IMG/VR virus record: IMGVR_UViG_3300047510_002509
Source of the DNA: a virus
Reading direction: 5' to 3' (one strand)
DNA length: 64,000 nucleotides
Both the position numbers and the translations under genes were made by a program. Below are positions 26,076-55,557 of the stretch, one piece after another; positions within the stretch are counted from its first letter, which is position 1, and every line of letters starts with the position of its first letter. The notes under the pieces were generated by a model. That model did no database searches. It saw nothing but the letters and a program-made list of their open reading frames with translations, and was not told the origin of the DNA.

Positions 26076-26621
26076 GTGTGGAAACCAGCTAACAATTTAG
26101 AGTGGCAATCAGAAGCCCTATGCGCAGACCCAGATAACAAGCACTATAGAGATTGGTTTTTTTCAAAAGACCCAAAAGAAAAATATAACGCAAAAAATCT
26201 TTGTTTTGAGTGCCCAGTCAGATCTCAATGCCTTCAATGGGCACTTGAGCATCGTCAAATTTGGGGAACTTGGGGAGGAAAGGACGAGGGAGAAATTCGT
26301 CGTGCTCTGTCTGTTTCATATAAAGGTGAAGAAATAAAAAGAAGGAGATACCCGCACTGTCCTTTTTGCTCAGCTAGACCTTCAAAACTTGAAACAAGCT
26401 CTCAAGAAATTCCTGGTGGTGGTCGGTGGACTGTCGCCAAGATAGTTACATGTACGATGTGTGGCTTTTCTTGGCGCAGTCGGACCAGCGTAAATGCTAT
26501 TGAAGCATATAAAACTGACAGAATCGAAAAATCTGAAAAACGTGCAAAAATTAGAGAGAAAAAAGCAAGACAGCTTGAAAGAAAAAAACAAGCAAAACTT
26601 TTAAAGAAAACCTCTAAATAA
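26076..26621 (+). CDS. whiB: WhiB-family protein fused to Zn ribbon and basic tail
   Basis: WQSEALC, CFECPVRSQC and GTWGG, then CPFC...CTMC and a Lys/Arg-rich end. Confidence 0.88.
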   Translation: MWKPANNLEWQSEALCADPDNKHYRDWFFSKDPKEKYNAKNLCFECPVRSQCLQWALEHRQIWGTWGGKDEGEIRRALSVSYKGEEIKRRRYPHCPFCSARPSKLETSSQEIPGGGRWTVAKIVTCTMCGFSWRSRTSVNAIEAYKTDRIEKSEKRAKIREKKARQLERKKQAKLLKKTSK

Positions 26622-28119
26622 TAATATCTTTTGGATAGAGTTCAAATGGTGGTCTATCGGCTAAAAGTTTTCTCATATCATTTCTAAATGCTTGATAGTG
26701 CCCTTGAGCGTACTCGAACTGCTTAAACTGGATAAGTTCATTCATAGCTTGTTCTCTTGTTACATACCCCAATCCAGCTAGAGTCCACTTCCAAAGAGCA
26801 TCTACTCCCCAAAAATCCATAAAATGCATTACAGATGGAATTCTGCTTTTAGATCGCTCTATATAATTTTCTACAGCGGGGGATGTGATTTTTTCATATT
26901 TAATGGTCTTCCAAAACTCTGAATCTTCTCTACCACCTTGATAATGAAAAACTGTAAAGTCTTTGTAGTACTCATACATTTTTGAAGTTTTTGCGTTGTA
27001 TTTTTCAATAGAGTGTGGATTCAAAGTTTTATCTTTAGTGTAGGAAAGATATTCTTGACAAAAAGTAAAAATCTGCATAATAGTGGCATGAATACTTGTT
27101 GCTTCCAAAGGCTCGATAAATGAGCTGGCAAGACCAACAACAAGAACATTACCTTTCCAAAATTGATCAACGCGACCAGACTCATATTTGATATGTTTAA
27201 TTGGTTCAATAGGATGGCCCATTACTTTTTCCGCTTCGGCTTGAGCCTCATCGTCAGAAAGAAATTGACTGCTATATACATAACCACAACCGCGTCGACC
27301 ACCTGTTGGGGTTCTCCACATCCACCCAGAAGAGAGTGCCTCAGCAACTGTAACTGGTTGAACCTTTTCTTCTTCTTTGTAGGGAACAATAAATGGCATT
27401 GCTCTATCTACGAGAAGTTGGTCTTTATAATCAATCCAACCAATATTAAGTTTATTTGCTAAAACTCTTGAAAATCCAGTGGCATCGATAAAGAAATCGC
27501 CTTCAACAATTTCCCCTGTATCTAAAGTTAGACTTTGAACAATGCCAGTGCTATCAACCACCACGTCATTTATCACTGCATCAATATGTTTGGTGTTAGT
27601 TGTTTTTGTTATATATTCTCTAAGATATTTAGCAACTTTATGTGCATCAAACTGAAAGCCGTATCCTGCACTAACTGGCATCTTATTTAAATCATAAGCT
27701 TGACCTAAAGTTGAGGACAGATAAGCTTTTTCGGGGCCAAATTCTGAGACTACATAATTAAAAAGATAGTCTGGAGAACGTTTAGATGTCTCAGAACCAT
27801 TAATTGGTGCCCAGTAGTGACCTTTCTCTTTTGCCCAGTTAATATGTTTAAGAGCGTATTTTGGTACACCATCTACTTTTGAAACAAAGTCTGAAAAATC
27901 AAAAGGCACTCTATTTGGATTTAAATAATCAATATTGTTAAAAAGAGTTGCTCCATCTAACAAATCGTACATAAAACCACTGGTAGCTTCTCCCGCTCCA
28001 ATAATTCCTATTTTCTGAGACTCTATGACAACAACCTCGTGAGAGTTTGGATTAGAAGCATGAATAGTGTAAGCAGACAACCAGCCTGCAGTTCCACCTC
28101 CGCAAACTACAAATTTCAT
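26614..28119 (-). CDS. Flavin-dependent (tryptophan-halogenase family) halogenase
   Basis: GGGTAGW FAD motif, IGAGEAT, conserved Lys in VPKYALKHINW, FIDATGF, GWMWRTP and FIEPLEATSI. Confidence 0.88.
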   Translation of the reverse strand: MKFVVCGGGTAGWLSAYTIHASNPNSHEVVVIESQKIGIIGAGEATSGFMYDLLDGATLFNNIDYLNPNRVPFDFSDFVSKVDGVPKYALKHINWAKEKGHYWAPINGSETSKRSPDYLFNYVVSEFGPEKAYLSSTLGQAYDLNKMPVSAGYGFQFDAHKVAKYLREYITKTTNTKHIDAVINDVVVDSTGIVQSLTLDTGEIVEGDFFIDATGFSRVLANKLNIGWIDYKDQLLVDRAMPFIVPYKEEEKVQPVTVAEALSSGWMWRTPTGGRRGCGYVYSSQFLSDDEAQAEAEKVMGHPIEPIKHIKYESGRVDQFWKGNVLVVGLASSFIEPLEATSIHATIMQIFTFCQEYLSYTKDKTLNPHSIEKYNAKTSKMYEYYKDFTVFHYQGGREDSEFWKTIKYEKITSPAVENYIERSKSRIPSVMHFMDFWGVDALWKWTLAGLGYVTREQAMNELIQFKQFEYAQGHYQAFRNDMRKLLADRPPFELYPKDIII

Positions 28120-29189
28120 TAAGAATCCTCTTTAATAAGAGCTTTTAGACAAAACTCTAAATTTGCTTTTAATCTTTCATTGTCTGGCTCTAAACTAAAA
28201 GCAGCTTTAGCATGTTCTACTGCCTCTTCAAATTTTCCAAGATTAAAGGCAGAGATTGCTGCAAAGTCGTGCGGGGCAGCTCCCCAAGCTTTTGCCTCAC
28301 AAAGATACTCGAGTGGTTTTTCCACAATAGCAAGAGCATCTACAGATGCTTCATAACACTTTTCCCAATCCTTGCGTTGATAGTAGAGTTCTGCAAGATC
28401 AACAAATGGCTCTCGTCTACCGGGTGCTTGCGCAATTGCTTTACGAAACCAAACCTCTGACTCTGCAGGAAGAGACTTACCAATAAATCTCATAGAAGCA
28501 GCACGTTCAGGTGCCCACCGAGCTGTAGGAAGTTCAAGATGACGCTTAAGCTCTGCCGCGGCTTGTTGATACTGACCATAAAAATAAAGTTCGCGCCCAT
28601 AATAAAAAGCATTACGGTCGTTATATGGGTCCTCTTGAACTGACATCGCAAGGAGTGGGAGATATTGGGACCTAGACTTTGTTGGGTCTGGGTGGTGGTG
28701 GGTTTCTACGCCCTCAAGCCACTCTTGAACTTCTTCGCGTCCGTATACATACAAGCACTCATGTACTGGGTGACGCCAACGATAATTTTTGCGAGTGTGG
28801 ATGTGGTCGTAAGAAAATTCAAGTCCTGGTGTTCCATCATCATTCCAAGACCAGATGTGCTTATACCGAGGACGAGTAACTCCTCGCTCCCAAGCTCGAC
28901 GTAATGGTTCTCTCCAATTTGGAGTAATTACTTCATCCATATCAAGAGATATGCACATGTCAATATCAATTGGTAACGCAGCCATAGCCGCGTTTCTTGC
29001 ATCATCGAATCTCCATGGAGAGACCCGAACATCAACTACATTGATTCCTAATTCTTTTGCACGTTCTACAGTTCCATCAGTTGAACCTGTGTCGGCTATC
29101 AGCAAGTAGTCAGCATCTTTTGCAGCTTCGTACCATGTGTCTACAAATTGACGTTCGTTTAAAGCAATTGTGTATATAGCTACCTTCAT
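28119..29189 (-). CDS. GT2 glycosyltransferase with TPR domain
   Basis: IALNE, DTGSTDGT, WRFDDARN, LDMDE (DxD) and HPVHE, then helical TPR-like repeats. Confidence 0.9.
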   Translation of the reverse strand: MKVAIYTIALNERQFVDTWYEAAKDADYLLIADTGSTDGTVERAKELGINVVDVRVSPWRFDDARNAAMAALPIDIDMCISLDMDEVITPNWREPLRRAWERGVTRPRYKHIWSWNDDGTPGLEFSYDHIHTRKNYRWRHPVHECLYVYGREEVQEWLEGVETHHHPDPTKSRSQYLPLLAMSVQEDPYNDRNAFYYGRELYFYGQYQQAAAELKRHLELPTARWAPERAASMRFIGKSLPAESEVWFRKAIAQAPGRREPFVDLAELYYQRKDWEKCYEASVDALAIVEKPLEYLCEAKAWGAAPHDFAAISAFNLGKFEEAVEHAKAAFSLEPDNERLKANLEFCLKALIKEDS

Positions 29190-29198
29190 ATGGATATC

Positions 29199-29777
29199 CT
29201 ATCTTGTTCTTCGGTACCAACGCTGGTAGCCATCAACTATTACTTCAATTTTGTCTGAGTTAACTACAGAAAAAGCATCAATAGCCAGTTTTGGCTCATT
29301 TAACACACCTAATCCAGCTGACCATCTATAATCATCAAAAGCTATAATGCCTCCAACGTTAAGGCACTCTAGAGCATTAACTGCATCTTTTAGGACCCCA
29401 TAGGCTGTATGGTCCCCATCAACGTAAATAAAATCATATTTTTCTAAATTATTTTTAAAAAACCAATCACTGCTGGATTTTACTTTTACAATTTTTCTGC
29501 TGTCTCGGGCGTCTTTTGTTTTTGAATCATACACCTGCTCTACAGTCCCCCAATTCATCTGATGATGCGAAGGCTCGTCAGATCCCTCCCACGTGTCAAC
29601 GTCAATCAAAACAGAGTTTGGATTATGCCGTAAAACGTTATTCCACAACCATAGAGATGCATCACCTGTGTAGGCACCTATTTGAAGCATTCTTGCTGGT
29701 TTATCTTTATATGCCATTAAATGAGCATTAAAATTAACTTCACCATCATTAGCAAACCAATTAGGTAGTGTTGTCAT
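29199..29777 (-). CDS. Class I SAM-dependent methyltransferase (Methyltransf_24-like)
   Basis: LQIGAYTG, VDTWEGS, YDFIYVDGDH and GGIIAFDDY. Confidence 0.88.
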   Translation of the reverse strand: MTTLPNWFANDGEVNFNAHLMAYKDKPARMLQIGAYTGDASLWLWNNVLRHNPNSVLIDVDTWEGSDEPSHHQMNWGTVEQVYDSKTKDARDSRKIVKVKSSSDWFFKNNLEKYDFIYVDGDHTAYGVLKDAVNALECLNVGGIIAFDDYRWSAGLGVLNEPKLAIDAFSVVNSDKIEVIVDGYQRWYRRTR

Positions 29778-29810
29778 TTTTGTCCTTTCGACCCTTAAGC
29801 CTATATTAAA

Positions 29811-30440
29811 TTATGAGTATTGGCTAGCACCACTTGCGCTGTCATTAGCTGTCCCAGACCAAAATCCATTATAAGAACCGTCAAAATATGTTCCTAAAGA
29901 GCTTGAATATTCAGCCATAGCGGAGTCTACATAGAAAACGTCAGTATTAAAAGATGAAGTAGTGACAACTCTCATAACAAAAAAGTTAGCGCTAGGGCTT
30001 TTTGTGAATGACCCGCTAAGTCTTACCCATCCGTCAGCAGCGGTTAAACTGGTTACTCCAATATTTCCACTAGCAATAGCAGCGCTTGAAACTTCTGTTT
30101 GATATTGAAGATGTCGTAAATAATATGTAGCATTTGAAGCAAGCGAGTCTAACTTTATATATGCGCTTAAATACCAAACATCATCCGTAGAGAAAAAAGG
30201 AATTCTGGTTACATTTTGAACTCCGCCTCCTGAAGTATTAGTTACTTTTAATGAAGCAGAGCCAGTATTAAATTCAGATGTAACCCTCTCTAGAGTTGTT
30301 CCAGCAAAAGATGTCCAATCAGAAGTTGAAACTTCAAAAGTAGGATTTTTAATATAATTAACCCTATACCCAAGTTCTTTTGGTTTGCTTACATCTTTTA
30401 GAGAACCTGCAGCACCAATGCAACCAACATTTACTGGCAT
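29811..30440 (-). CDS. Carbohydrate-binding (CBM4/9-like) domain protein
   Basis: NYIKNPTFE, GSASLKVT, WVRLSGSF, FYVDS and YFDGS. Start MPVNVG overlaps the upstream stop (TAATG). Confidence 0.6.
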   Translation of the reverse strand: MPVNVGCIGAAGSLKDVSKPKELGYRVNYIKNPTFEVSTSDWTSFAGTTLERVTSEFNTGSASLKVTNTSGGGVQNVTRIPFFSTDDVWYLSAYIKLDSLASNATYYLRHLQYQTEVSSAAIASGNIGVTSLTAADGWVRLSGSFTKSPSANFFVMRVVTTSSFNTDVFYVDSAMAEYSSSLGTYFDGSYNGFWSGTANDSASGASQYS

Positions 30441-30901
30441 TAAACTAGCGCCAAATCTCCAACCAAAATCCATTCGTTCTCTGCAATCTTTATCGCAGAT
30501 GCGACAGAGTACTGAGTGCGAAGTTTATTGGTTGGTGTAGACCTAACTGTGACTCCAGTGTCTCCTTCAACAGTTAACTGACCTGCGCCATATTGAAGAA
30601 AATCAATTTTCTGTCCTATAGAAAAAAGAACAGCGGCATCTGTTGGAATAGTAGCAACAAAAGCTGCACCGCTATCACACTTTAAAATTTTTCCAGCATC
30701 TGTTAGCGCAACGGTAAAAGAGGTACTTTGCGTAGATACCACTTGAGCCGTTGACCAATCACCTTGAGGCCCAGTTACACCTTGTGGACCAGTTGGACCT
30801 GTAGAACCGAGAACACCCTGAGGGCCCGTCGGACCAGTTGCACCAGCAGCAATTGGAGTCCATATTCCTCCATTAGAGTCATATGATTTAATTACTGGCA
30901 T
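30440..30901 (-). CDS. Short collagen-like fibre protein
   Basis: About 10 GXY triplets, then a C-terminal beta domain shared with 47241..49130. Confidence 0.75.
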   Translation of the reverse strand: MPVIKSYDSNGGIWTPIAAGATGPTGPQGVLGSTGPTGPQGVTGPQGDWSTAQVVSTQSTSFTVALTDAGKILKCDSGAAFVATIPTDAAVLFSIGQKIDFLQYGAGQLTVEGDTGVTVRSTPTNKLRTQYSVASAIKIAENEWILVGDLALV

Positions 30902-30917: not shown

Positions 30918-32504
30918 CTATGGAATAGCGTGCGTCCAAAGAGCACGGTTAGACGTTGCAACATCAGCGGATAGTACTGATGAAGGTAAATCGGTTTGTG
31001 CAGCTACTGCCCCAGATATTCTAGGAGAAAGAGCAAGAATTGAATTTATCGCGGTTGAAGATGTGTGCGAATGACCAGCTACTGTAGGAAGAGTATTAGC
31101 AGTGGTAATTAAAAGTGCATAAGCATATGTAGTACCAGCTGTCTTAGACCAAGGTGAGGCTAAAGTAACTTCATATGAAGTGTTAGCTGCAGAAAATACA
31201 GATGTGTCACTGGCTGTAGATGCTACTAAAGTTAAATCTCCAGTGGTGTTGTCTACTGAATATACTCCCATTTTAACTAAAGTCGGTGTAGCTCCTGCTG
31301 CTGTTCCACAGGACATAGAAAGTTTTGTTATTGTTTCTGTTTTAGTTGCTTTTCTGTATGTCAAAAGCATAGTTCCAGAAGTTCCGTAAGAAAGGTTAGC
31401 TATAGCAGCTTTTCTGCTAATGCTAGCTTCTCCTAAAGTTAGAACGTCAATGTCAAATAGCTGATTATCCAAGTTTGTAATTTGAGATGTAGAAAGTGTG
31501 AGTTCATCAGCGCCTCCAACAGAGTGTGTAGAGGCGTGAGATAAAATTGCTGCATCTACAGTTGTATCTACCCAAATTAATGAAGTATTTGCTGGAGGTG
31601 TTGCACCAACTTCAATACCAGTATCACCTGTAGAACCCGTAGGACCAGTTGGACCTTCTGGTCCAGTTGGACCAGTTGGACCTTCAGGACCTGTAGGACC
31701 AGTTGGACCAGCAGCACCAGTTGGACCACCAGGTTCTCCCGGGGCACCTGTTGGACCTGTTGCGCCATCAGCACCACCAATACCTTGAGGACCTTGAACA
31801 CCTGTAGGTCCAGTAGGACCAGTAACACCGATTGGGCCAACAAGAGCCCACTCTTGGTTTAAGTCAGACCACGCGTATACAAACTCTTGACCAACAACAT
31901 AAGCATCACCAATTGCACCAATTGGGTTATCTGCTTGAAGGAGAGCTAAAGTTGAATAAGTACCAAGAATACGAACACTAGAACCTTGTGGACCAGTAGG
32001 ACCCGAAGGACCAGTAGGACCAAATGGACCTTCAGGACCAGTAGGGCCAGTAGGGGCAACAGTTGCCACTGTATTAAATCCATTACCTACATAAACTTTT
32101 ACTTCATCAGTTTCGGAGTCAATCCAAATGTCACCAATAGTTGGAAATCCAGGCTGAGTAGGGGTATATACGACATTGGCTCTACCAGCTTGGTCATACA
32201 GCAGTGTGCATGAAAAATTTGCAAGAGAGGTTGAAGATCTTACCCATACTTGATCTCCAACGTTTAAAGCAAATCTAAAAGTCTCAAAAGATTGACCAAC
32301 ACTTACAGACAAATTGTCGACAATATACGACCTAGTTGCTTCTACGCCAAGTGCTTCAGCTGGTTCAACATAAATACTTACAAGACTTTCTATATTTGCC
32401 CTATTAGCAACAATTACAGAAGCCACGCCAGCAGTGTCATTTGTGGCTAAAAGAGTGGCAACATTAGAGTTGGGGGTAGCAAGACCGAGGCGTTTTACTG
32501 GCAC
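30918..32504 (-). CDS. Collagen-like protein
   Basis: GPT/GPX tracts. N-terminal domain paralogous to 34157..36538. Confidence 0.85.
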
Positions 32505-32557: not shown

Positions 32558-34144
32558 CTAGACTGTAGCCCTAAAGAACGAAAAGACACGCTGTGAGCCC
32601 ATGGGGACATACATAATCTTATTTTCCCCCCCGTGTAGGCTGTTCACGGAAGTATAATCGTCATCTAGCCCAGTTGTATACATAACACTTAAAGCTTTGT
32701 TTCTAATAAATGCTATCACTCTTCTGGGGTCCCAATCTGGGTGCATTTGATACACAAGGGCAGCGACCCCAGCTACCTGTGGGGCAGCCATTGATGTGCC
32801 AGATAGGAGTTGCTGTTTAAAAGAATTATTCAAAAAATAAGCAAAGTTACTGTTGTCATCATTTACTGCGCTCATGGCGCTAATAATTCTAGAGCCAGCT
32901 GCGTACATATTGACGCCAGGACCAGAATTACTAAAATTAGCTTTTCTATCTAACAAACCTTCAGTAGTGTGGTCAACAGCACCAACAGTAAATACTTTAT
33001 CTGAAACTGTTAAATTTCTGCCCGGTGTACCGCCTCGGTGGTAGTAGTAAAACCCGAAGTCAGTCAAAATGTAGTTATTATAATCAACTCCACCTTGTAC
33101 ATCAATTTTTAAAAATTCATTTCCCGCAGCATTACAAAATAAAATTCCAGCGTTGGCTCCAGAAGCAATATCAGCATCTACTGAAGAAACTCGGTATGGA
33201 TAAAAATATGTATCTGGGGCTACTAAAGAACCAGTGTGACCCTTTGCTGGGTCTAAAGTTGCACCACTCCAAGAAACACCTCTATAATTTCCACCACTTA
33301 TCCCAAATAAAGTTGCACTTTCATCTAATCCAAAAGAAAAAGCTTCTAAATCGGCACGATGAAAAACTCCATAACCCCAGCTATTGCACACTACTGTTGG
33401 TCTTCCGTTGGTTTTGTTGTTATGCCAACCAATTAAAACATCAAAAGCGGTAGCTGTGTCTAACCCCTGACCTGGGTCACGAGATGCTCTAAGACCTTCT
33501 AACTTTATAGAAAAAATTTGAGCATTTTTTGCCCAGCCAAAAGTTTTTCCAGCAACTGTTGCTGCTACGTGGGTTCCATGACCGTCATAGTCTTGATAAA
33601 ATCCATCTGGCATAGAACCAGAAACACCACTAAGAGCAAACCAATCTATAGGATTAAATCTGCTGGCATTTGAGTTTCCAACCTCAGTAAATTCTGGGTG
33701 ATTTGCTTGAATACCACTATCGATAATTACAACGTCTACGCCTGTACCATCTAAAACATAATCATATGTTCCGCTAGGATCGCCTAAGCCTGTTCCATAA
33801 ACATTAGAAGTATTTATATGTCTAAGAAGGCCCCAGTTAGCTTTTGCCCCAGTTTGGGTACTTAGCTTGTCAAAGTTTCCTTCTTGAAAAGCCAGTTTTA
33901 CTGGTTTAAACATGTTCAAATCTTGAACATCTATAACTCGAGGGTCTTCTCGTAAACGAGCAGCTTCCTCATCTGTCAACCAGTAAGAAGTGTTATTTGG
34001 ATTAGTAGGTCTTTCATTTGCAACTTCTACTGGTCTATTTGGGATGGTGTCTAAAATACTCTCAGGGGATAGCAAATCTTCCCACACAGAATCGGTAATT
34101 TCCATACTCTCTGTGGTGACTGTGTATTCCTTATATTCACTCAT
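32558..34144 (-). CDS. S8 subtilisin-like serine protease
   Basis: Triad VVIIDSG, HGTHVA, SGTSMAAP. Oxyanion AAGN and an N-terminal prodomain. Confidence 0.92.
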   Translation of the reverse strand: MSEYKEYTVTTESMEITDSVWEDLLSPESILDTIPNRPVEVANERPTNPNNTSYWLTDEEAARLREDPRVIDVQDLNMFKPVKLAFQEGNFDKLSTQTGAKANWGLLRHINTSNVYGTGLGDPSGTYDYVLDGTGVDVVIIDSGIQANHPEFTEVGNSNASRFNPIDWFALSGVSGSMPDGFYQDYDGHGTHVAATVAGKTFGWAKNAQIFSIKLEGLRASRDPGQGLDTATAFDVLIGWHNNKTNGRPTVVCNSWGYGVFHRADLEAFSFGLDESATLFGISGGNYRGVSWSGATLDPAKGHTGSLVAPDTYFYPYRVSSVDADIASGANAGILFCNAAGNEFLKIDVQGGVDYNNYILTDFGFYYYHRGGTPGRNLTVSDKVFTVGAVDHTTEGLLDRKANFSNSGPGVNMYAAGSRIISAMSAVNDDNSNFAYFLNNSFKQQLLSGTSMAAPQVAGVAALVYQMHPDWDPRRVIAFIRNKALSVMYTTGLDDDYTSVNSLHGGENKIMYVPMGSQRVFSFFRATV

Positions 34145-34156: not shown

Positions 34157-36538
<2,382 letters not shown>

Positions 36539-42500: not shown

Positions 42501-42646
42501 AAAAATGCAACTCCTGGAGCTAGAGGAGTTGGGATAACGCTCTCTCCACTGTTTTTGAAGTAAATAAAATCTTCATCAATGTTGACGTTGACTCGAGCAA
42601 AAGTGTGAGTACCCTGCGCACCTGCAGCTGTTACATCAATAGGCAT
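36548..42646 (-). CDS. Large putative virion protein with Gly-rich domain and ~9-10 beta-repeat modules
   Basis: 2032 aa. Repeated VN...D.....HGF..G..V.Y...YYV...IKLA modules, a GGGGG-rich domain, and RQTRKYFRYQSGKG / YSWYGAG core motifs. Confidence 0.7.
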   Translation of the reverse strand: MPIDVTAAGAQGTHTFARVNVNIDEDFIYFKNSGESVIPTPLAPGVAFLYTSGVGSVTGFTENGLVYVTTTEPKKLKFSTTFNGTALDFTDSVAGSIKFNTPIVFSNKLNIDASTPTNQAVKYYTNGTPITGLTSGDTYFLKNVSISEFAGSQALYAFTSHTFTTCGKTGRVGPTQQEMRASYSTTWDETYLVQGAFVGYQDWTVPVSGIYRFNVRGASGYNGAGSGGIGRGAIVEGEIALTKGEVITIAVGQQGAAPSSGTTWGGSGGGTFVVRKTGNEPLFVAGGGSGESNVGAGRDAVLTQLGGTSTNNQPAGGQAGFGGRSTNPFGRSAAGGGFFSRGQNGGFGNTTTLGGGSFLDGLTMGTNTLVGGYGGFGGGGQSDGNVTGQSGGGGGYSGGGGARSTTANHSGGGGGSFVVATAANVKTSTGFFDGANTFNGTLIANLNAYHTGEGQVAVTLVSSFTTGNSVHPTAQDAENGTNAIAIEPAGSSYHSFVPINLDIQNDAIHSAALHTLNNGEAIQVSFNGVPPTGIQNNGIYYVNTIDAFSYRLSTTPSPSFTNINLISPSSREVSTTSKISRVVVNTATDTLTISNHGFLVDQPLRYSVGDGTAITPLIDQATYYVAEVLNANQIRLKSSLNSPTFINFTGAGTGTGHSFIFLTVNALEDTLYIPNHGLVSGQAVRYSKGLEANTVIPGLTDNTTYYIVKVDNSIVRLATNKALTVIANITSQEPWPATGTHSLFITSLDYATNTITLPGHGFLQGELVEYDSKGQTAVDGLTTATPYYVIFIDGDNIKLATTPEEADAGTAVDLTDTPLGVGRHTLRSLSKTPDGIYTITSTPSATTFTVEAAGNVPIITKVFNPRSTVNLEADTFFLPSHGFTTGTEVTYEQGDSATDIGGLINNTQYYVVAINRDYLKLATSAENAAAGITLSVTDWGTGVGHKLITDQINGNVTGSGTVSVVSGSVLVNGTGTAFSKILKVGDRFRLFPANTTKQHGTLVFEAADVNTGTNLITKSNTFATADAVVFSAGSGTAPSPLVEGTTYYVRVVSAGSTFTLHPTAANATANTNIIDITTVGSGTDLQLSRTNKTFSDVDVNTTNNRIVKTHNFETGEVVKFATNGGVAPTPLVDGYYYYVRAISNTEITLHTTLNDANNNLQAVDFSTQGTGTAFSLTSTAPVGPIIRKITAIGGDTQITVDRPYANAYDAVSYSYPTFVYVRPQGYSLHRPFDGGVEMSVGSKTSFGQIVRQTRKYFRYQSGKGIQSSCGVNFQPSIDLESMTKFSEITIECKTRRPHGLVSGLFIVINAAEDSFGDVSTVYNGEFQVTVVDLTTFRFTAKEPIVESRAYGFPQFYVREWENGAVREGMFDFQNGAFFEFDGEAIYCVRRSSTQQLAGTASALQGSEIIFGNNTSFQAQLDVGDYVVMRGQSYRITEITSDTRMSVRPEYKGSSGTEKEFNPQTQVNISTDVITIIGHGFSNRLPVVYNSIDGEPIGGMINGRTYYVDLINNNSFKLVADPDSTVNVNLSNTGTTTTHSFVPAKSGIVITKTVDTRIPQSQWNVDICDGSGPTGYNLDISRIQMAYIDYSWYGAGKIRFGFKTVDGQVQYVHEFVHNNNLFESYFRSGNLPGRYEVVTYENPTYIPYLFHWGTSVIMDGRFDDDNAYLFTGTSQTLNIPGTTAKSFASSGINLTTDLFTVQSHGFAQGDLLQFQSIATNGFPGTNNLNPATQIVGSNTTATLQNDALYGVLVNSPNLIHLTPPNVTISKGSSYSGGQAITSAQAGTTVTITTTLPHNLTTGMYVGVYGSTRVANGPFYITRTSDTAFTYQAPTATVASGADPTIIMCEVINFTSQGNTQYTYFLYPNGSLNNTSGPNYQPLLSIRLSPSVSEGLTGKLGDRDVLNRMQLRLQEIGVSTTQLVDVKVLLNPRLNNLNFVGVDSPSLTQIVEHTAQDTVSGGVQVYNFRAAGGASGAEDTTVVDVSTLFELSNSILGGDSIFPDGPDILTIAVSRLTGNSTLTAAKMSWAEAQA

Positions 42647-45441: not shown

Positions 45442-46092
45442 TTATGTACCTAACCACCAGCTGTAACTAGCTGCAAATGACCCCTGAGCCCCTGTTGGAC
45501 CGACAGGTCCAGTGGAACCACCCTGAGTTTGAATAAAAACACCATTATAAAAAACGTAAGTAATTGCTGTATTAGTGTCAAACCAAGCATCACCATTTAC
45601 AGCAGTTAGTAGATCAGGTGCAGTTGGACTAGCTGTGAATTTACCAACAGGACCAGTTGGACCAGTTGGACCTGGAACCTCGGATTGAGCTCCAGTTGGA
45701 CCAGTTGGACCAGTAACACCGCGAGGACCTGTAGGACCTTGTGGACCAGTTACATTTGAATCTGCACCAGTAGGTCCAGTAAATCCACGCTCACCACGCT
45801 CACCTTGCAAACCTTGCGGACCAGTAGGACCTTGCGGACCAGTAGAACCTACAGGACCTTGAGGACCAGCAACATCAGATACGGGACCCGTCGGACCAGC
45901 AATACCTTGAGTACCAGTTGGTCCTTGTGGACCTGTCGCACCTGTCGGGCCTTGAATACCTTGAGGTCCAGTTGGGCCAGTAGGAGTTACACGCTTAGCT
46001 TCCCAGACAGCGCCAGTCCAAATCCAAGTCTGCCCACCTGCGGTGAACTCTTCGCCAACCACTACGGGTGTTGGAAAATCAATTGCTGCCAC
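45442..46092 (-). CDS. Collagen-like protein
   Basis: AIDFP N-terminal motif and a long GPT tract. Confidence 0.85.
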
Positions 46093-46141
46093 TTAGCTTG
46101 TCTCCTTTCTGCTCCAAATGTCTATTCTACTTTGATAATTC

Positions 46142-46318: not shown

Positions 46319-47239
46319 TTAACCTCCCGAATACGCAATCTTGCCACTATTACCTACTGCAATAGCTACCGAATCGTCAAGATATACATCATTTATATTT
46401 GATGTACTAAAACCAGAGTTTCTCTGGACCCAAGAAATTGAATCTGTAGAGGTTGCTAGCTTACCCGCGGTTCCACCAGCTAAATAATAATTTTCTAGAT
46501 TTGACGTGACAGACCTAATCTGGGACGAACCAAAAGTGCTAGCTGGAAATGTTTGTACCCAAGTAAGGCCATTGTTTGAAGTTGCTATTTTTCCAGAGTC
46601 TCCTACAGCAACATACCTGTTTTCTGAAGGGTTACTAGTGACTGAAAAAATAGTGCTTGTAATAAAAGAAGAACCTCTTTGAGTCCAACTAATTCCATTG
46701 GATGATGTTGCCAATTTTCCATCATATCCAACAGCGACCACAAGAGTTGAGTTGGCAAAAAGACCATTTATAAAAGTAGTTCCAAAGGAAGACAAACGCT
46801 GAGTCCACTCAATTCCATCAATTGATGTAGCTAATTTTCCAGAACCACCAACAGCAATCCACAATCCAGCGGATGGAGCATAAGTAATTCCCAAAATTGC
46901 ACTTGCACCAAAAGATGAGGCTCGCAGTGTCCAAGTAATTCCATCTGGAGAGGTAGCCATTTTTCCAGAGCTGCCACCAATAATGTACTGATCGTCACCA
47001 TATGCAATAGCATAAATGTTGCTACCAGCAAAACCTGAAGACCTCTGGGTCCATGAAGTTATATCTCCAGAGGTCGCGACTTTTCCAGAACTCCCAACTG
47101 CAACAAATTGCCCAGTTCCATTAGTAGCAATTCCATTTATGTTTGTAGTACCAAAAGAACTATTTGATACAAGATTCCAAACAGCTGGAAGAAACGCTAC
47201 TGGTAGTGTCGCATGCATTGCATGAGTTGCTATTAACAT
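46319..47239 (-). CDS. Beta-propeller (BNR/Asp-box-like repeat) protein
   Basis: About 7 repeats of VAVGxSGK(L/V)ATSxDGIxWTQRxSSFG. Confidence 0.8.
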   Translation of the reverse strand: MLIATHAMHATLPVAFLPAVWNLVSNSSFGTTNINGIATNGTGQFVAVGSSGKVATSGDITSWTQRSSGFAGSNIYAIAYGDDQYIIGGSSGKMATSPDGITWTLRASSFGASAILGITYAPSAGLWIAVGGSGKLATSIDGIEWTQRLSSFGTTFINGLFANSTLVVAVGYDGKLATSSNGISWTQRGSSFITSTIFSVTSNPSENRYVAVGDSGKIATSNNGLTWVQTFPASTFGSSQIRSVTSNLENYYLAGGTAGKLATSTDSISWVQRNSGFSTSNINDVYLDDSVAIAVGNSGKIAYSGG

Positions 47240-47240
47240 T

Positions 47241-49130
47241 TTATGCCTGCAAGTTTCCGCTAAGTAACCATGAATTAGCACCAAGCTTTATTAATGAGGC
47301 CACGGCATATCTTTGTTTGCTGGTGTATCTGCTTCCTTCACTGAGAACATTTACCCCAGCGGCTCCAGTAACACTAAATACAGCACTTCCAAGCTGTACA
47401 AGAACCAATTGAGCGCCTGTGTCAAACGTATATCCATTTGTTCCATCAGCTGGAATAGTTACAACGGAAGGAATTGAACTATTTAATTTAACTAAAGAAG
47501 CTGCATCGTTCGCTGTCAAAGTAACAGATGATAAATATTGAGGACCAGTTAAATTAAAGAAAGCTGGGCCAGTAGGACCAGTATCTCCTACAGGACCTTG
47601 AATGCCTTGAATACCTTGCTCACCCTGCGGGCCAGGAACGGTTGATGGGTCTCCTTGGTCACCTTTAGATCCAGTAGGACCCGCTGGGCCTACTGCTCCA
47701 TCTGGACCAGTTGGTCCTTGGATACGACCAACGTTTTGCCAAACTGTTCCATTCCAAACCCAGAGATCGCCTGTTGCTTGAACTACATATGCATCATTAA
47801 TTTGATTGTTAGTTGCAGGCAAATCAACATCGTTAACAACTGTGCCTTTAAACTTAATTGATGCACCTTGTGGACCAGTTGGACCTATAGGACCAACCTC
47901 ACCAGCACCGAGAACTAAATTCCAACTTGAATAAGTATTTCCCTCGCCATTTATTTTGTCTACAAACATCGTTATTGATGTTCCAACAATTCCTGTAATG
48001 ACACCTTCCATATAATCCTGAGGGAAAGTAGCACTAGCTAATCTTGCTCTAGTTCCTACTGCAAAAGCACTAACTTTATTTACAAGGAAGTTTTCCGAAC
48101 CAAGATTTACAGATAAAGTAGCAGAAGATGTTACGCCAGAAAAGCTATCTCCGGGATCACCCTTATCACCTTTAGGACCAGTTACTGCAGGACCAGTTGG
48201 TCCTATTGGGCCTGGAACCGTTGAGTCAGCACCAGTAGGACCAGTTACTGCGGGACCAGTTGGACCAGTTGGACCGGGAATAGTAGAAGCTGCACCTGTT
48301 GCACCAGTAGCACCTGTTGCACCACGAAGACCTGCCGCACCTTCTGGACCTGTTGGACCAGTTGCACCAGTAGCTCCAGTCGGACCAGTTGGACCACCAG
48401 ATGGACCAGTTGGACCTGCATCTCCTGTTGCCCCTGTTGGGCCCGTGACTGAAGGTCCTGTTGCACCAACTGGGCCAGTAGGACCTACGAATCCGCGAGG
48501 ACCTGTAATACCACGCTCACCTTGCAAACCTTGCGGACCAGTTGGGCCAGTCTCTCCTTCTGGGCCTTGTGGGCCAGTAGCACCAATTGGACCTGTTGAA
48601 CCAACAGGACCACGCTCACCTTCGGGGCCAACTTCACCCGTAGGACCAGTAGGGCCTTGTGGACCAGTAGGACCAGTAACGTCTAAACCATTTGCACCTG
48701 TAGGACCAGTATTTCCTTGCGGGCCAGTAGCACCAGTTGGTCCTTGCGGACCAGTCGGACCTAACTCTGTAGATATTGGACCCGTCGCACCTGTAGGACC
48801 AGTGGGTCCTTCACTACCAGAAAGACTGGAAGCAGACTCTACCCAGTAGTCATCAAAATAAACATAAATTTTTCCTGTGGCAGTGTTTAACCATGCATCT
48901 CCAGCAGAAGCTCCAACTGGAGGCGTATCAGCGGCAAGTAGAACTGTTCCTGTCGCACCTGTAGGACCCGTTACGTTACTTGCTGCACCCTGAGGACCTG
49001 TCGCACCCGTGGGTCCAACAACTTGAGAAATTACAAGATTCCACGCGGTGCCATCCCATTGCCAAGTTTGTACACCAGATGTAAATAAATCTCCTATTGT
49101 TGGGGAGTTAGGGAAATCAATGGCTGCCAT
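47241..49130 (-). CDS. Collagen-like protein
   Basis: AIDFP N-terminus, long GXY tracts and a C-terminal domain shared with 30440..30901. Confidence 0.85.
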
Positions 49131-49141: not shown

Positions 49142-49843
49142 TTATACCGCCGACTCATAGGTAAATTGAACAAGTATCTTGTCATTAGCACTTATCAAAA
49201 ATGGAGTACTTTCCGTAACGGCAACGCCTTCGTCAAAAGTTGCAGACTGAGAGTGCATAAATAGCTCTATACGGTTTGTGAAGTTGTTATTAAAAATTGC
49301 TGTACCAAAATATGTAATACCTGGTCCTTCATCTCGCATAACAACTTGACCAACTGGCTGATAATTTTCCACAATTCCACTAGAAGGCAGACTCAAAGAA
49401 TAAGTACCACTGCCTCGGTTAAATCCAATGGTTCCTGCTTGAATTCTTATTTCACCAAAAATTGTTGCTCCAACATAGGTATATCTACCTTGAAGAGTTC
49501 CATTTCCAATCTGAGGATTTGTAGAGCTTCCATACCAAATTGGTGTATACAAAGTCCAAGGAGCGATTGCAAATTCTCCAGTTGCTCCCGTAGGCCCTGT
49601 AGGACCAGGAACAAGTGATGCCGCACCTTCTGGACCTATTGGACCAGTTGGACCAATCTCACCCTGTGGACCAGTAGCACCGATAGCAGTTGAATCAAGA
49701 CCCGCTGGGCCTGTAGGACCAGTTGGACCTTGAGCACTTGTGCGAACTAAACGCCAAGCAGTGCCGTCCCAGTAGTAAGTGTTAACACCGTTTGTGTACT
49801 CTTGATTTAGAGTTGGATTAGTTGGAAAGTCTATAGCTGTCAT
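49142..49843 (-). CDS. Short collagen-like protein with C-terminal beta (fibre-head-like) domain
   Basis: AIDFP N-terminus, a GXY tract and WTLYTP...GRYTYVG head domain. Confidence 0.8.
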
Positions 49844-49857: not shown

Positions 49858-52800
49858 CTAACTCGGTACCGAAACAAAAGCACCAGTTATATACAAAGCT
49901 GTGCCTGTGCTTAGTGTAGTAGGAGCAGTGCCAGTTACAGGGGTAAGCAACCCATTGGTTCCTTCAAAATAAAGTTTCATTGTTGCAGAACCTTCTGATT
50001 GGCTAATAGCCTTTACTGAATATAAACTTCCAGCTTGCGAACCGTCTATATCCAAAAATCCAACCGCGGTGATAGTTTCAACTGAATTCGGTAGGAATGG
50101 AAGAGTTACTGTCAACTGCGCAGAGCTAAAAGCAGAGTTGGAATAAATAATTCTCACACCAAAAGTGACATCTTGACCGTACCTCGTATACTCACCAAAA
50201 ACAGTAGGAGTTCCTGTTATACCTCCAGCAATTGGTACATACTGATTTGATACAGGTTCTCCTGTAGGTCCTGTTGGACCCGAAGGACCAGTTGGACCAA
50301 TCTTGTCAACAATCTCGATGATGCCACCGATACTTGGCTCAGTAACGTCAACATAAACTAGTTGTGTTGGAGCATCAAGTGGTACATCATAAATAATGGT
50401 TGTGTCTGCGCTAGCTCCAGTACGACCCTGAGTAGGAGAGTTATTGATTGTTCCTGGAACAGTAGAAGCAGAGAATTGACTTAAACGAAGCGCAAATGGG
50501 TTTGAAGTTAAAACTTGACTTACGTCAATATAAACACGTTCGCCTCGAACTGCAGTTAGGGTTGGGTTTCCTCCAAGCAATGATTGAACTTGGTAAGAGC
50601 CACCATCTCCAGTAGAAGTTACTATATAAGTAACTCCACCCTTAGCTCCCGTAGGACCAAATGGACCTGTAGGACCAGTTGGACCTGGTTGGGTAGATGC
50701 TGGACCAGTAGGACCAGTAACTCCTGGACCAGTAGGACCAGTAGGACCAACAATTTGTCCTACATTATTCCAACTATCTCCATCCCAAACATACAAATCG
50801 CCATCAGCATCTACAGCGCGACCATCATTAAGAGTGTTGCCAGTAGAAGGAAGTTCTCCAACTGTCGCAACGCTTGCTTTCATTGTGATTGAAGTACCTT
50901 GTGGTCCTGTTGGACCAGTCGGTCCTAAATCACCCTGAGGACCAGTTGGACCTTCAACCGTTGAGTCAGCACCAGTAGGACCAGTAGGACCAATCAAAGC
51001 ACCAGCTTCAATCCATCCATCTTCAGAGGTATAGATATAGATAGTGTCTTCTTCGTAGATAACGTAGAAATCGCCTACCTCGGCTGAAGTTGCTCCAGCT
51101 CCAGCAATAAAGTCTGCGTAAGTGTTGTAGTAACCCTTAGCTTGAGAACCGACACCCTGAGGACCAGTAGGACCAGTAACAATTGGGCCTGTGGCTCCTG
51201 TTGCTCCCGTTGGACCTACTAATCTGCCTTGGTCTTCCCAAGCTGAACCATTCCACACCCAAAGATTGCCTGTATCTAAAACAATGTATGCATCATTTGT
51301 TGTGTTACCAGAAGTAGGCAACTCTGATGATGAAGCCAAGTTTCCTAGTAGATTTAAAGAAAATCCTTGAGGACCCTGAGGGCCCGTTGGGCCTGTATCA
51401 CCTTGAGCACCAGTTGGGCCTGTTGCTCCACCAAACTCTGTCGTACCTACTTCGACCCAGAAGTCGTCGTAGTAAACAAATACAGCACCATTTACAGTGT
51501 CGAACCAAACTTGACCAGCAACTGGGTTTTCTGGTGGAGTAGCAGATTTAGGTATGAACTGTCCGTCTGGACCTGTTGGTCCAACAAACTGTCCAGCATC
51601 TACCCAACCAGAACCATCCCAAACATAAAGATTTCCATCTGCAGCAACAACATAAGCATCATTTAAATTATTGTCAGATGCTGGGAGTAAGCTAGTTGTG
51701 GCTATCTCTCCAATAACATTTAGAGCAACTCCTTGCGGACCAGTGGGTCCTGTTGGACCAGTTGGACCTGTAACCTGAGAGTCTGCACCTGTAGGACCAG
51801 TTACACCCTGAATACCTTGCTCACCCTGAATACCCTGAATACCTTGAGGACCAGTAGGTCCTGTTGGACCTGTCACTTCTGGTCCAGTTGGGCCAGTAAT
51901 TCCTCGATAACCAGTAGGACCCGTCGCACCTGTAGGTCCAGTAGGTCCTTCGACAGTGCTGTCTAAACCTGCAGGACCTGTAGGACCAGTAGGTCCGACT
52001 GGAGCTGCACCAGTTTCAATCCAATAACCGTCGTAGTAAACATAAGTTTTTCCATTGTTGCTGTTAAACCAAGCATCACCATTGTCAGGAGAGGCAGGAG
52101 GAGTTGAATCAGCAATTGCAAAAGCACCCAGCTCGCCTTGGGTACCTGTTGGACCAGTTGCACCAGTAGCACCTGTTGGTCCAAGAGGACCAGTTGGGCC
52201 TTGGATATTTCCAACGTTGTCCCACTCAAGACCGATTGCGTCCCAAACGTACAGGTCACCATTTACTAAGTATCCGTCGCCTTCATTACCTGTTGGTTGT
52301 GCGGCTTGTAGTGAAGCAAGGTCTGGGTATGAACCAAGAATTGTTACACCTACACCTGGATCACCTTGAGAACCAGTAGCACCAGTAGGACCAGTTACAC
52401 CTTGAATACCTTGTGAACCTGTAGGACCAGTAGCACCTGTTGGCCCCACTTCACCTTGTGGACCAGTTACACCTTGCTCACCTTGTGGACCAGTTACACC
52501 TTGCTCACCTTGTGGACCAGTAGCACCTGTTGGCCCCACTTCACCTTGTGGACCAGTTACACCTTGCTCACCTTGTGGACCAGTAGCACCAACTTCACCT
52601 GTTGCACCAGTTGGACCTACTTCACCCTGAGGACCAGTTGGACCTTCAACCGTTGAGTCAGCACCAGTAGGACCAGTAGGACCAGTTACACCTTGCTCAC
52701 CCTGAGGACCAGTAGGACCCTCGACTGTGCTATCTGCACCTGTAGCACCTGTAGGACCAATCTCACCCTGTGGGCCAGTTGGACCTGTAGCACCTGTTGG

Positions 52801-55557
52801 ACCAACCTCACCTTGAATACCTTGCTCACCCTGTGGGCCAGTAGCACCTGTTGGACCAACCTCACCTTGAGCACCAGTTGGACCTGGAACTGTGCTATCA
52901 GCACCAGTAGGACCCGTGGCACCAGTTGGACCAGTAGCACCTGTAGGACCTTCAACGGTGCTGTCAGCACCAGTTGGACCTTGCGGACCAGTGATTGCTG
53001 GGCCAGTGGCACCAGTGGCACCTGTAGGACCTATAGGCCCTTGAGGACCCATATCTCCAGTACGTGCAAAAGTAATAATGATGTCTTCATCATTTGAGAA
53101 TGCTGTTGCTAAACCACTTACATAAGAAACTGGAACTGTGAAATATCCAGAATTCTCGGCAATGTTTCCAGTAATAGCAAACAAAGCAAAGTCAGCAGAG
53201 TTTGTTTTATTGCTGATTCGGAAGTGACCCTTAATTGGGCTGGTTGAATCATCAATTGTTCTAAGGAATGCTTGAATGTCGATGGCCCCATCGGACTCAT
53301 CGTCAATAAACATGTATGTGGAAAGTTGAAGGTCTGCAGTATTAAATCGCAGTTTGCCAACACCTGGGTCTGCTTCTGCAGTTGTTGATGAGAATGTGAA
53401 GTCGAAAGATGCTCCACCAAAATTACCAGCTGGTCCTGTCGCACCTGTAGCACCAGTAGCACCAGATACACCTTGCTCGCCTGTCGCACCTGTCGCACCA
53501 GTTGCGCCTACTGCTCCATCGGCTCCTGCGGCACCAGTAGGTCCAGTTGCGCCCACATTTCCTTGAGCTCCAGTAGGTCCAGTTGCTCCCGCTGCTCCTG
53601 TGCTTCCTGCAGCACCTGTAGGTCCAGTCGCACCTGCTTCTCCTTGAATTCCTTGTGCACCTGTTGCTCCTGTTGCTCCCGTTGCGCCTGTCGCACCTGT
53701 GGCACCAGTGTCACCTTTGTCACCAGTACGAGCAAATGTGAGAATTACATCTGCTCCATTTGAATAAGAAGTTGCAAGACCACTTACATATGCAACTGGA
53801 ACTTTAAAATAACCAGAGGCCTCAGTGCTTGCGCCCGTAATTGCAAAAAACGCGTAGTTGTTTGAATCTGTCTTTACCGCAATGCGGATGTGACCCTTGA
53901 TTGTGCTGGTTGAGTCATCGATTGTTCGAAGGTAGTTTTGAATATCAACTGCACCATCAGACTCGTCATCGATGTACATAAATGTTGCAGCACTTAAATC
54001 TGCATTATTAAAACGAACTCCACCAGTACCTGGGTCTGAATCAGTAATTAGTGAGCTAAATGTGTAATCAAGTGTTACTCCACCAAACGAACCTTGTGGA
54101 CCAGTAGGACCTGTTACACCCTCGGGACCTTGTGGGCCAGTAGCACCTGTTACTGATTGACCTGTCGCACCTGTTGCACCTGTAGCACCAGTTGGACCAG
54201 CAACGCCTGTTGCACCCGTTGGACCCTGAATACCTTGCTCACCTGTAGCACCTGCAGGACCAGTTACACCCTGAATACCTTGTTCACCTTGTGGACCTGT
54301 TGCTCCTGTAGCACCAGTCTCTCCCGCTGGGCCTACAGCACCTGTAGCACCTGTAGGACCTGTATCCCCAGTTGCACCTGTTGCACCAACTGAACCTTGA
54401 GCACCTGTTGCACCAGTTGGTCCAACTGGTCCAACCTCACCTGTGGCACCTGTAGGACCTGGCACTGTGCTAGCGGAACCTTGAGCACCTGTTGCACCAG
54501 TAGCACCTGTTGCACCAGTAGCACCAGTTGGTCCTCTATCACCGATATCGCCTGTTCGAGCAAAAGTAACTAAAACATCATCATCAGTATTAAAAGATGC
54601 GGCTAGACCACTGAGATATGCAACCTCAACTTTGAAATAACCACTATCTTCTACATAATTTTCAATTGCAAAAATTGCTGAGTAGTTCGAATCACTCTTG
54701 CGTGAAATTCTAAAGTGACCTTTAAGTTGGCTGGTCGAAGCCATAATTGTGCGCAGAAGATTTTGAACATCAATGCCGCCATCTTGCTCATCGTCAATAA
54801 ACATGTAACTAGCAGAAGCAAGGTCAGCATTATTAAATTTAATTCGTCCAGAACCTGGGTCTGAATCGGTTGTGTTTGTGCTGAACGTCATGTCCAGCGT
54901 TACTCCACCAAACTGACCTGCAGGACCAGTGGCACCTGTAGGACCAGTTACATTAGATGCTGCACCTGTTGGTCCTTGCTCACCTTGAGCACCTGTAGGA
55001 CCAGTAGGTCCTTCGACAGTTGAGGCTGCTCCCGTAGCACCTGTAGCACCAGTTGGACCGACGCTACCTGTTGCACCAGTAGCTCCAGTTGGTCCTGTCG
55101 AACCCGTGCTTCCTGTTGGTCCACCAGCGGGACCCGCTGGGCCTGTAGGACCTTGAGGACCTGCTGGACCGACTTGACCGCGAAGAACGTCGATACCTGC
55201 AGGAGATGTGGTGATACGGTCAACCGTGTCAAGTTTGGTTATATCAATGTCACTGTTATCGCCCTGAGGCAAATAAAATCTAAATTCTGTTGAACGTCTG
55301 CCAGAAATTCTTACTTTTGCAGTCCAATACCAACCGCGGGGGCTGAGGTCTAGGTCATCGGTGCAAGGAAGTTCTACTGAAAAAGAGCCTGTACTGTTAA
55401 GAGTAGCCGTAATTGGGCTAGATACAATAATTGCATCATTTGTGTCTTCAATTCGACTTGATGCTGTAAAGGTGATTGTGCCAGACGCAGGGGAGCCAGA
55501 ACTCTTTAAGTACTGACCAACAACACTTCTTGTGTTTACGTCAGGAGAAAAACTCAT
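49858..55557 (-). CDS. Giant collagen-like protein (1899 aa)
   Basis: Many GPT/GAT tracts, three ~115 aa FGG...TFARTGD domains and several Trp-containing interrupt modules. Confidence 0.88.
52424..52590. repeat. Exact 27-nt-unit tandem repeats in collagen gene
   Basis: GGACCAGTTACACCTTGCTCACCTTGT and GGACCAGTAGCACCTGTTGGCCCCACTTCACCTTGT units recur exactly. Confidence 0.8.

Follow-up and report, generated by a model that had tools for sequence, protein, structure and literature searches.

A phage GT2-TPR glycosyltransferase encoded with Thr-rich collagen-like fibres: a candidate system for glycosylating virion fibres

What would a phage do with a protein-type glycosyltransferase encoded near the end of a long run of collagen-like fibre genes? 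The question is raised by a 64,000-nucleotide stretch of viral DNA (IMG/VR record IMGVR_UViG_3300047510_002509; the whole stretch is referred to here as the window), whose gene content is that of a large tailed phage, represented in part. In it, a block of 15 co-oriented open reading frames (ORFs) reads along the minus strand from position 55557 to position 26614 (~29 kb). Seven of these ORFs encode collagen-like proteins, and one encodes a glycosyltransferase (GT) of 356 aa with a GT-A (GT2) domain followed by tetratricopeptide repeats (TPRs; 28119..29189, minus strand). We hold with moderate confidence that this enzyme O-glycosylates the Thr-rich collagen stalks of an accessory virion-fibre module.

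A preliminary description of this DNA had reported a 29-kb run of co-oriented, mostly tightly spaced genes that includes seven Gly-Pro-Thr collagen-like proteins, and both statements hold. The intergenic gaps within the block are mostly 9–53 bp, or the genes overlap; the widest gap is 226 bp (46093–46318) and the next widest 93 bp. The seven collagen-like proteins, of 1899, 233, 629, 216, 793, 528 and 153 aa, together contain 476 Gly-X-Y triplets, 240 of which (50%) have Thr at position Y; the commonest triplets are GPT and GAT, followed by GPQ. Five of the seven pass the Pfam Collagen (PF01391) cut-off of 27.2 bits, with scores of 42.9–244 bits; the 233-aa (23.0 bits) and 153-aa (21.4 bits) proteins score below it, still with runs of 7–10 triplets. 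Four further genes, for proteins of 2032, 895, 321 and 220 aa, are fibre- or adhesin-like, so that the fibre/adhesin total is 11 and the fibre protein encoded by the block amounts to about 8,000 residues. The run of enzymes said to end the block was described correctly in part: genes for a carbohydrate-binding module (CBM)-like protein, a methyltransferase (MTase), the GT and a halogenase do close it, while two collagen genes intervene after the subtilisin gene that had been counted with them. No signal peptide or membrane segment was found in any of the 15 block proteins; thus, enzymes and fibres would meet in the cytoplasm, and display of the fibres on the infected cell, which had also been entertained, is unlikely. 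Scans of the block for promoters and terminators gave counts no higher than the shuffle expectation and are uninformative on operon structure.

The GT is well defined as to its architecture. Pfam places Glycos_transf_2 at residues 7–121 and TPR matches at residues 210–341, and the AlphaFold model (pLDDT 96.8) shows a GT-A sheet in residues 1–165 and helical repeats in residues 176–355. The DxD motif (D83-M-D85) and the nucleotide-binding DTGS motif are invariant in 45 diverse homologues. The protein has no hydrophobic segment and is predicted to be soluble. Foldseek matches the model best to the peptide glycosyltransferases SunS/ThuS (E 1.6e-15, TMq 0.64), the next unrelated entries following at ~1e-7; likewise, VIA-align gives SunS/ThuS Z scores of 20.9–22.3 over 258–306 aligned residues, compared with 17.9 for the next unrelated entry. 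The best sequence match in the PDB is GmaR (E 0.002), the flagellin O-GlcNAc transferase of Listeria.

Two known systems are instructive for understanding what such an enzyme may do. SunS/ThuS (PDB 7msn, 7msk, 7msp) resemble the window GT in both the GT-A and the TPR halves and are soluble glycosylators of polypeptides. Their identity to the window GT is only 11–15%, however, and their substrates are small Cys-containing bacteriocin precursors; neither a bacteriocin precursor gene nor export or immunity genes adjoin the window GT, the neighbours of which are the MTase, halogenase and fibre genes at gaps of 9–53 bp. For these reasons, the window GT, judged by its model, works like SunS/ThuS but stands outside their family. 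The second system is SgtA of Clostridioides difficile, a 358-aa protein with a GT-A domain in residues 1–260 and four TPRs, which is encoded beside bclA3 and adds beta-O-GlcNAc to Thr of the GPT repeats of BclA3 in vitro (PMC7157674). Going by the published description of SgtA, the window GT shares with it size, the order of GT-A domain and TPRs and GPT-rich collagen genes in the same block, and its predicted target is likewise Thr in Gly-X-Thr repeats. The DxD motif of the window GT is that of metal-dependent GT-A enzymes. Moreover, homologues of the window GT (40–48% identity) are encoded beside (GPT)n collagens in genomes of Bacilli and Clostridia. Unlike SgtA, the window GT is phage-encoded, would serve virion fibres rather than spores, and shares its block with genes for an MTase, an S8 protease and a halogenase.

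A further line of evidence comes from the GT family as a whole, which comprises 4274 clusters (50% identity) at E<=1e-3. A scan with an alignment of nine GT sequences yielded 80 loci, which belong to genomes of Actinomycetota, Bacillota, Bacteroidota, Pseudomonadota, Planctomycetota, Verrucomicrobiota and Saccharimonadota, and scans with distant members of the family yielded 142 further new viral loci. Linkage was tested in the 69 GT lineages that remained after dereplication (<=70% GT identity), taken both from IMG/VR and from genomes across many phyla; the expectation was taken from control ORFs within the same loci in 200,000 simulations. A collagen ORF lies within 150 bp of the GT gene in 26 of the 69 lineages, compared with 3.7 expected, and none of the 200,000 simulations reached 26; within 3 kb, the count is 42 of 69. 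The adjacent collagen (<=150 bp) is on the same strand as the GT in 24 of 26 cases, and Thr occupies position Y in 68% of the triplets of GT-adjacent collagens. Gene contexts that are otherwise unrelated often agree in having a GPT/GAT collagen ORF 0–40 bp from the GT gene and on the same strand. On the GT tree, collagen adjacency turns up in every clade, and viral rows stand among bacterial ones. A clearly cellular locus has the order tRNA synthetase, (GAT/GPT)99 collagen, GT, LtaS-like sulfatase, and a Bacillus locus combines a 121-triplet collagen with a DegT aminotransferase, further GTs, a GT2-TPR gene and an S8 protease. Since the enzyme has a SunS/ThuS-type fold and the size and layout of SgtA, and since collagen genes are enriched beside its family, the Thr-rich collagens of the block are the most likely substrate of the window GT. 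We found no publication on the pairing of GT and collagen genes in phages.

Several individual loci of the GT family should be mentioned separately. Two of them, in Bacillus sp. 1P02SD (L267:2-10612) and Shouchella tritolerans (L245:1891-13241), contain (GPT/GAT)n BclA-like collagens, several GT2-TPR paralogues and a DegT sugar aminotransferase, and look like exosporium glycosylation loci that use the same GT family; in the first, an S8 protease gene lies directly 3' of the GT. On the complete acI-type chromosome of actinobacterium SCGC AAA044-D11 (L212:2498-9062), a gene for a 935-aa GAT/GPT collagen with 146 triplets is followed by two tandem GT2-TPR genes, one of whose products is 52% identical to the phage GT; thus, the likely host lineage owns a collagen-plus-GT cassette, or else carries an integrated element. 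A phage of another type, with a portal gene nearby (L055:2512-15728), has a richer glycosylation set around its collagens: a GT4, UDP-galactopyranose mutase, an Mtd_N collagen, a Fringe-like GT, a GT2-TPR protein 68% identical to the window GT, a 738-aa collagen and two Gly_rich_2 proteins. Among metagenome proteins, GT2-TPR units also occur as tandem triplications of up to 1040 aa.

Among the phage relatives of the window, the arrangement of the block is largely conserved. The GT is present at 68–95% identity in 60 IMG/VR loci, and 59 of these have the phage architecture of the window. The common gene order, with variable genes in brackets, is glycine-rich giant, collagen, (S8), collagen, (small collagen), (CBM), MTase, (halogenase), GT, (halogenase) and a convergent whiB gene. 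In loci with enough flanking sequence, the giant gene is present in 31 of 31, the MTase in 44 of 45, WhiB in 58 of 59, the S8 protease in 21 of 31, the CBM-like gene in 21 of 45 and the halogenase in 21 of 35. In each of four relatives that are 70–90% complete, all collagen matches fall into one block just upstream of the sole GT2 gene. In the co-occurrence across related phages that the preliminary description proposed to examine, the MTase is thus nearly constant, the S8 protease variable and the halogenase optional. The closest deposited genome, Actinomycetia phage DSL-LC01 (OQ999401) from Dishui Lake, shares the synteny (collagens, glycine-rich giant, collagens, halogenase-GT, convergent whiB) and a GT that is 61% identical to that of the window; it differs in that the halogenase gene precedes the GT gene and its product is only 21–23% identical to the window halogenase. 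In the paper on this phage, the halogenase figures as an auxiliary metabolic gene (AMG), and the collagen genes go unmentioned (PMC10611076). In some relatives, including DSL-LC01, a gene for a YHYH-domain protein of ~457 aa is inserted in the fibre block (L033:4844-6217, L061:17004-18374).

If the collagens are the substrate, where would they sit? We infer a place on the virion because the collagen proteins match tail-fibre and virion families of the PHROG database, also outside their collagen parts; the most fitting reading is that the block supplies accessory virion fibres to a large actinobacterial phage from fresh water. All block genes are on the minus strand. The giant collagen-like fibre of 1899 aa (49858..55557; 244 bits) has 242 triplets, mainly GPT, GAT and GPQ, in 21 runs; Thr occupies position Y in 52% of its triplets. 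An N-terminal 'IDFP...W.WDGTAW' module, which matches the 'tail collar' family phrog_3449, is common to three collagens: the short fibre of 233 aa (49142..49843), in which it precedes a short collagen stalk and a globular C-terminus and which matches phrog_3449 at positions 2–73, plus phrog_13144; the 629-aa protein (47241..49130; 97.7 bits, 77 triplets), with matches to tail-fibre PHROGs; and the 216-aa protein (45442..46092; 51 bits, 35 triplets), which matches a tail-fibre PHROG. The 153-aa short-stalk protein (30440..30901; 10 triplets) has a C-terminal domain of minor-tail type that matches phrog_21510, phrog_8780 and phrog_18179. The 793-aa (34157..36538; 63 bits, 72 triplets) and 528-aa (30918..32504; 42.9 bits, 33 triplets) collagens are paralogous in their N-terminal module, a jelly roll of ~105 aa by alignment and by the model of the 793-aa protein (pLDDT 81); the 793-aa protein ends in a C-terminal globular domain.

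The jelly-roll module is matched in the BFVD database by stand-alone 'virion structural proteins' and by the N-terminus of cyanophage 'tail fiber-like' proteins (E 3e-9 to 1e-5). Its matches in the PDB are generic (Foldseek E>=1.5e-3; VIA-align Z 7–9, inside the stated noise band) and are headed by the cement protein of phage KHP40 (Z 9.2), with YomS and domains of lambda gpJ among the others; with such matches, the module cannot assign the fibres to head or tail. Compared with BclA and ExsFA, the model gives TM scores of 0.21–0.31 (E ~3e-3). Ten terminal domains of the fibre proteins yielded nothing usable in Pfam at E<=1. For the C-terminal domain of the 793-aa protein (34160–34576, minus strand; motif GHPF), a cupredoxin assignment was considered and set aside, the lead being a sub-threshold ESM Atlas score of 0.79 to a viral plastocyanin/azurin cluster with zero Pfam matches.

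A coat on the capsid or neck (a 'nap'), rather than a set of tail fibres, is a possible though doubtful alternative for the location; in this arrangement the jelly roll would serve as a trimeric cement-like capsid anchor, and the arrangement is compatible with glycosylation. The setting of the block speaks for it. As the preliminary description had noted, the tail module is separate and on the opposite strand: the plus strand encodes a major head protein, head-tail adaptor, major tail protein, tape measure, Dit-like and Tal-like proteins and a fibre, so that the block lies apart from a complete tail module that owns a fibre of its own, one without a collagen run. The sheer mass of fibre protein in the block, the trimeric nature of the KHP40 cement protein, the capsid chains of cyanophage Pam1 also listed among the matches, and the annotation of the stand-alone ~105-aa homologues, which is 'virion structural protein' and nothing more, point the same way. 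Against it, lambda gpJ and baseplate domains score like the cement protein within the noise band, three collagens carry the module that matches the 'tail collar' family, several fibre ends match minor-tail or tail-fibre PHROGs, and the BFVD matches include the cyanophage 'tail fiber-like' proteins. The label 'BclA/exosporium-like', which the locus had been given, is apt for the pair of enzyme and substrate; a 'coat' would be one possible location of the fibres.

Whether the collagens are indeed the substrate has to be weighed against several observations that count against O-glycosylation of the stalks. No nucleotide-sugar gene was recognised in the window. The collagen gene nearest to the window GT belongs to the same run of genes but is 1.25 kb away on the upstream side, beyond the MTase and CBM-like genes. 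In two relatives (L052:8924-21050 and L053), the MTase-GT pair is inverted and lies 3' of whiB on the strand of the replication genes, the fibre block converging on it; co-transcription with the fibres is thus not obligatory. In 27 of the 69 GT lineages, no collagen occurs within the examined flanks. In jumbo phages with Gram-negative hosts (Pseudomonas phages PaBG and Lu11 and Erwinia phage Alexandra; L062, L063 and L064), a GT homologue 27–35% identical to the window GT is encoded in the order DNA ligase, hypothetical, GT, two hypotheticals, head maturation protease, and collagen is not annotated; because of this, the target there may be another virion protein. Finally, the roles assigned below to the S8 protease and the halogenase are guesses. 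Glycosylation by the phage of its own collagen fibres, as proposed in the preliminary description, is a predicted activity, for which the GT fold, the SgtA-like layout and the cross-lineage linkage to collagen speak.

Some of these observations fit another explanation. In it, the genes for GT, MTase and halogenase would be 'moron' (auxiliary) genes that happen to close a hypervariable fibre region; their products would act on DNA, on a metabolite or, for superinfection exclusion, on the host envelope, and the nearness of the collagens would be incidental. This is the usual published view of GTs in phage tail-fibre islands, which have been read as modifying the host surface (PMC7029224, PMC10202952); PHROG, too, places the GT family under 'moron/AMG' (phrog_13126), and the AMG treatment of the DSL-LC01 halogenase, the inverted MTase-GT pair and the jumbo-phage homologues agree with it. 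We nevertheless regard this explanation as unlikely: collagen adjacency is seven-fold over the within-locus expectation and extends across the whole GT tree, cellular loci included; the fold is that of a peptide/protein GT2-TPR enzyme rather than of a wall-polymer or DNA transferase; the GT lacks a membrane segment; and SgtA is a direct biochemical precedent.

Glycosylation of the collagen stalks by the GT raises the question of what the enzymes encoded around it would contribute. The 192-aa class I S-adenosylmethionine-dependent MTase (29199..29777) matches Methyltransf_24 (PF13578, 55.4 bits) and PF01596 (24.1 bits). GT homologues of 49–52% identity are fused to Methyltransf_24 or to RMNT_CmcI (rhamnosyl O-methyltransferase) together with extra GT domains; the fusions were seen in the metagenome proteins P0126, P0127, P0130, P0131, P0134 and P0139, the extra domains being Gly_transf_sug and Glyco_transf_7C. 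By these sequence relationships, the MTase is probably a sugar O-methyltransferase. Given the fusions and the near-universal pairing of MTase and GT, a methylated sugar is the most economical reading, and it is plausible that the sugar added by the GT is methylated. The methylated fibre sugar that had been proposed earlier is thus plausible and remains at the level of inference.

The S8 (subtilisin-family) serine protease of 528 aa (32558..34144; Peptidase_S8, 118.6 bits) has an intact triad, D142, H189 and S451, in DSG, HGTH and SGTSMA motifs, and its gene sits between those of the two paralogous collagens of 793 and 528 aa. S8 genes also lie 3' of GT homologues in three Bacillaceae loci, which makes a role in fibre maturation plausible, if unsupported. 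The S8 gene is present in 17 of the 17 halogenase-bearing relatives with enough flank and missing in eight of 12 halogenase-free ones. A link between the two genes was considered and rejected, as only three independent contrasts are left after correction for relatedness (p 0.5).

The flavin-dependent halogenase of 501 aa (26614..28119; Trp_halogenase, 285 bits) is the last gene of the block, and its start overlaps the stop of the GT gene. It has the GxGxxG motif (GGGTAG, residues 7–12), Lys87 in PKYALKHINW, and EPLEAT; its WxWxIP motif reads WMWRTP, an Ile-to-Thr variant. PDB halogenases are matched at E 1e-53, with residues 48–148 aligning poorly to Trp halogenases. Known viral flavin halogenases (VirX1, PDB 6qgm; cyanophage and pelagiphage enzymes) belong to the same Pfam family (PF04820), with about 33% identity and the Lys and Glu motifs; those of cyanophage Syn1 and pelagiphage HTVC008M, however, are encoded among 2-oxoglutarate-dependent oxygenase or packaging genes, whereas in the window the halogenase gene is coupled in translation to the gene of a protein GT. 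Wherever a halogenase is present (29 loci), it adjoins the GT, directly before or after it in 28 (gaps of -3 to 16 bp); in the remaining one (L036), one ORF lies between. The class of the window halogenase is 27–34% identical to the class found before the GT, which is closer to the pelagiphage halogenase (38–39%), and the DSL-LC01 enzyme is more distant still. With taxon sampling thin, these identities suggest that halogenases were recruited repeatedly to the same position, from at least two distant sequence classes. No halogenase was found beside the GT in the other viral or bacterial GT loci. A flavin reductase was not found in three relatives that are 50–83% complete, which is uninformative because host reductases can serve.

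For the halogenated fibres suggested in the preliminary description, there is no support beyond gene order, the halogenase being next to the GT and at the same time optional. That the halogenase acts on the product of GT and MTase, yielding methyl-glycosylated, halogenated collagen fibres, is in our estimate improbable. If it did, these fibres would provide the first case of a virion component that is halogenated, and viral flavin halogenases, without a known target since VirX1, would gain their first natural substrate of macromolecular kind. In any case, the coupling of halogenase and GT offers a concrete place to seek the natural substrate of viral halogenases.

S8 proteases, GTs, halogenases and MTases of these types are classic tailoring enzymes of natural products and of ribosomally synthesized and post-translationally modified peptides (RiPPs), and SunS/ThuS are the top fold matches of the GT, the halogenase adjoins it wherever present, and the S8 gene accompanies every halogenase with enough flank; yet the idea that the 3' cassette is such a tailoring set (SunS-like GT, LanP-like S8 protease, MibH-like halogenase, MTase) making a halogenated, glycosylated peptide or metabolite unrelated to the fibres is highly improbable, as the gaps of 9–53 bp are too short to hold a small precursor gene, core biosynthetic enzymes are absent, the conserved neighbour of the GT family is a collagen gene rather than one for a Cys-rich peptide, and the halogenase-S8 association comes down to the three contrasts mentioned above.

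For O-glycosylation of the collagen stalks, the following course of events may be proposed. Late in infection, the TPR half of the soluble GT2-TPR enzyme would hold unfolded collagen-like chains, and the GT would move a sugar from a host nucleotide-sugar onto Thr at position Y, like C. difficile SgtA on BclA3. The neighbouring MTase would then O-methylate the Thr-linked sugar. The collagen chains would subsequently trimerise, and their N-terminal modules would fix them to the virion. The S8 protease probably would cut a fibre component, and the halogenase would be an optional add-on coupled to the GT.

Virus-encoded glycosylation of virion or collagen-like proteins has partial precedents. In the citation of Freeman et al. 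2023 given in PMC12619734, mycobacteriophages resemble the window phage as actinobacteriophages with their own GTs and cytoplasmic O-glycosylation of virion proteins; the targets, as cited there, are not collagen repeats but the C-terminal ends of subunits of the capsid and tail tube. Analogously, Mimivirus has about seven collagen-like proteins and its own collagen-glycosylating enzyme, L230 (PMC9614988). L230, unlike the window GT, hydroxylates Lys and glucosylates hydroxylysine, and it belongs to an unrelated, eukaryote-style family of the GLT25D1/PLOD type.

The remaining proteins of the block are of fibre or adhesin character. The giant protein of 2032 aa (36548..42646) has an ALK/LTK-type glycine-rich domain (PF12810, 32.6 bits) and forms the conserved core of the block. 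The 895-aa protein (42661..45348) contains a He_PIG Ig-like domain (37.8 bits) and is of virion-structural type (phrog_5838, phrog_22713). The 321-aa protein (46319..47284) consists of SxDGxxW (Asp-box/BNR-like) repeats, is probably a beta-propeller, has weak matches to DUF6242 and NF045728, and has a 40% homologue in phage DSL-LC01 that is annotated as Ycf48-like. Its listed TTG start overlaps the preceding gene by 44 nt and gives an odd leader; translation probably begins at the Met of residue 16 instead. The widest gap of the block (226 bp) comes right after this gene. The 220-aa protein (29811..30473) is a CBM4/9-like beta-sandwich by its membership in a viral ESM Atlas cluster, 93% of whose members have CBM_4_9 (score 0.98, TM 0.88–0.91); in Pfam it has zero matches even at E<=1, and hence none to CBM_4_9 (PF02018).

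The conserved 3' boundary of the block is formed by a convergent gene for a WhiB-family regulator (26076..26621, plus strand; Whib, 62.4 bits). On the plus strand, the head and tail genes are followed by those for DNA polymerase, helicase, a PD-(D/E)XK nuclease and further replication proteins. The whiB gene and the G+C content of the window (~43%) indicate a low-GC actinobacterium as host. The best explanation is a large freshwater phage that infects low-GC (acI-type) actinobacteria.

The pairing of GT and collagen genes in actinobacteria, Bacillota, Proteobacteria, Planctomycetota and others takes the SgtA/BclA3 paradigm well outside the world of spores. Should phages indeed O-glycosylate collagen stalks rich in Thr, a type of phage fibre that is very common would have a chemistry that its sequence does not reveal: its hydroxyproline-free triple helices would be stabilised and shielded from proteases, and would present new adhesive surfaces. 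This would bear on host recognition, on the persistence of virions in lakes and on phage engineering. It would also call for a re-reading of the GTs in the 'tail-fibre islands' of aquatic phages, which have so far been assigned to modification of the host O-antigen.

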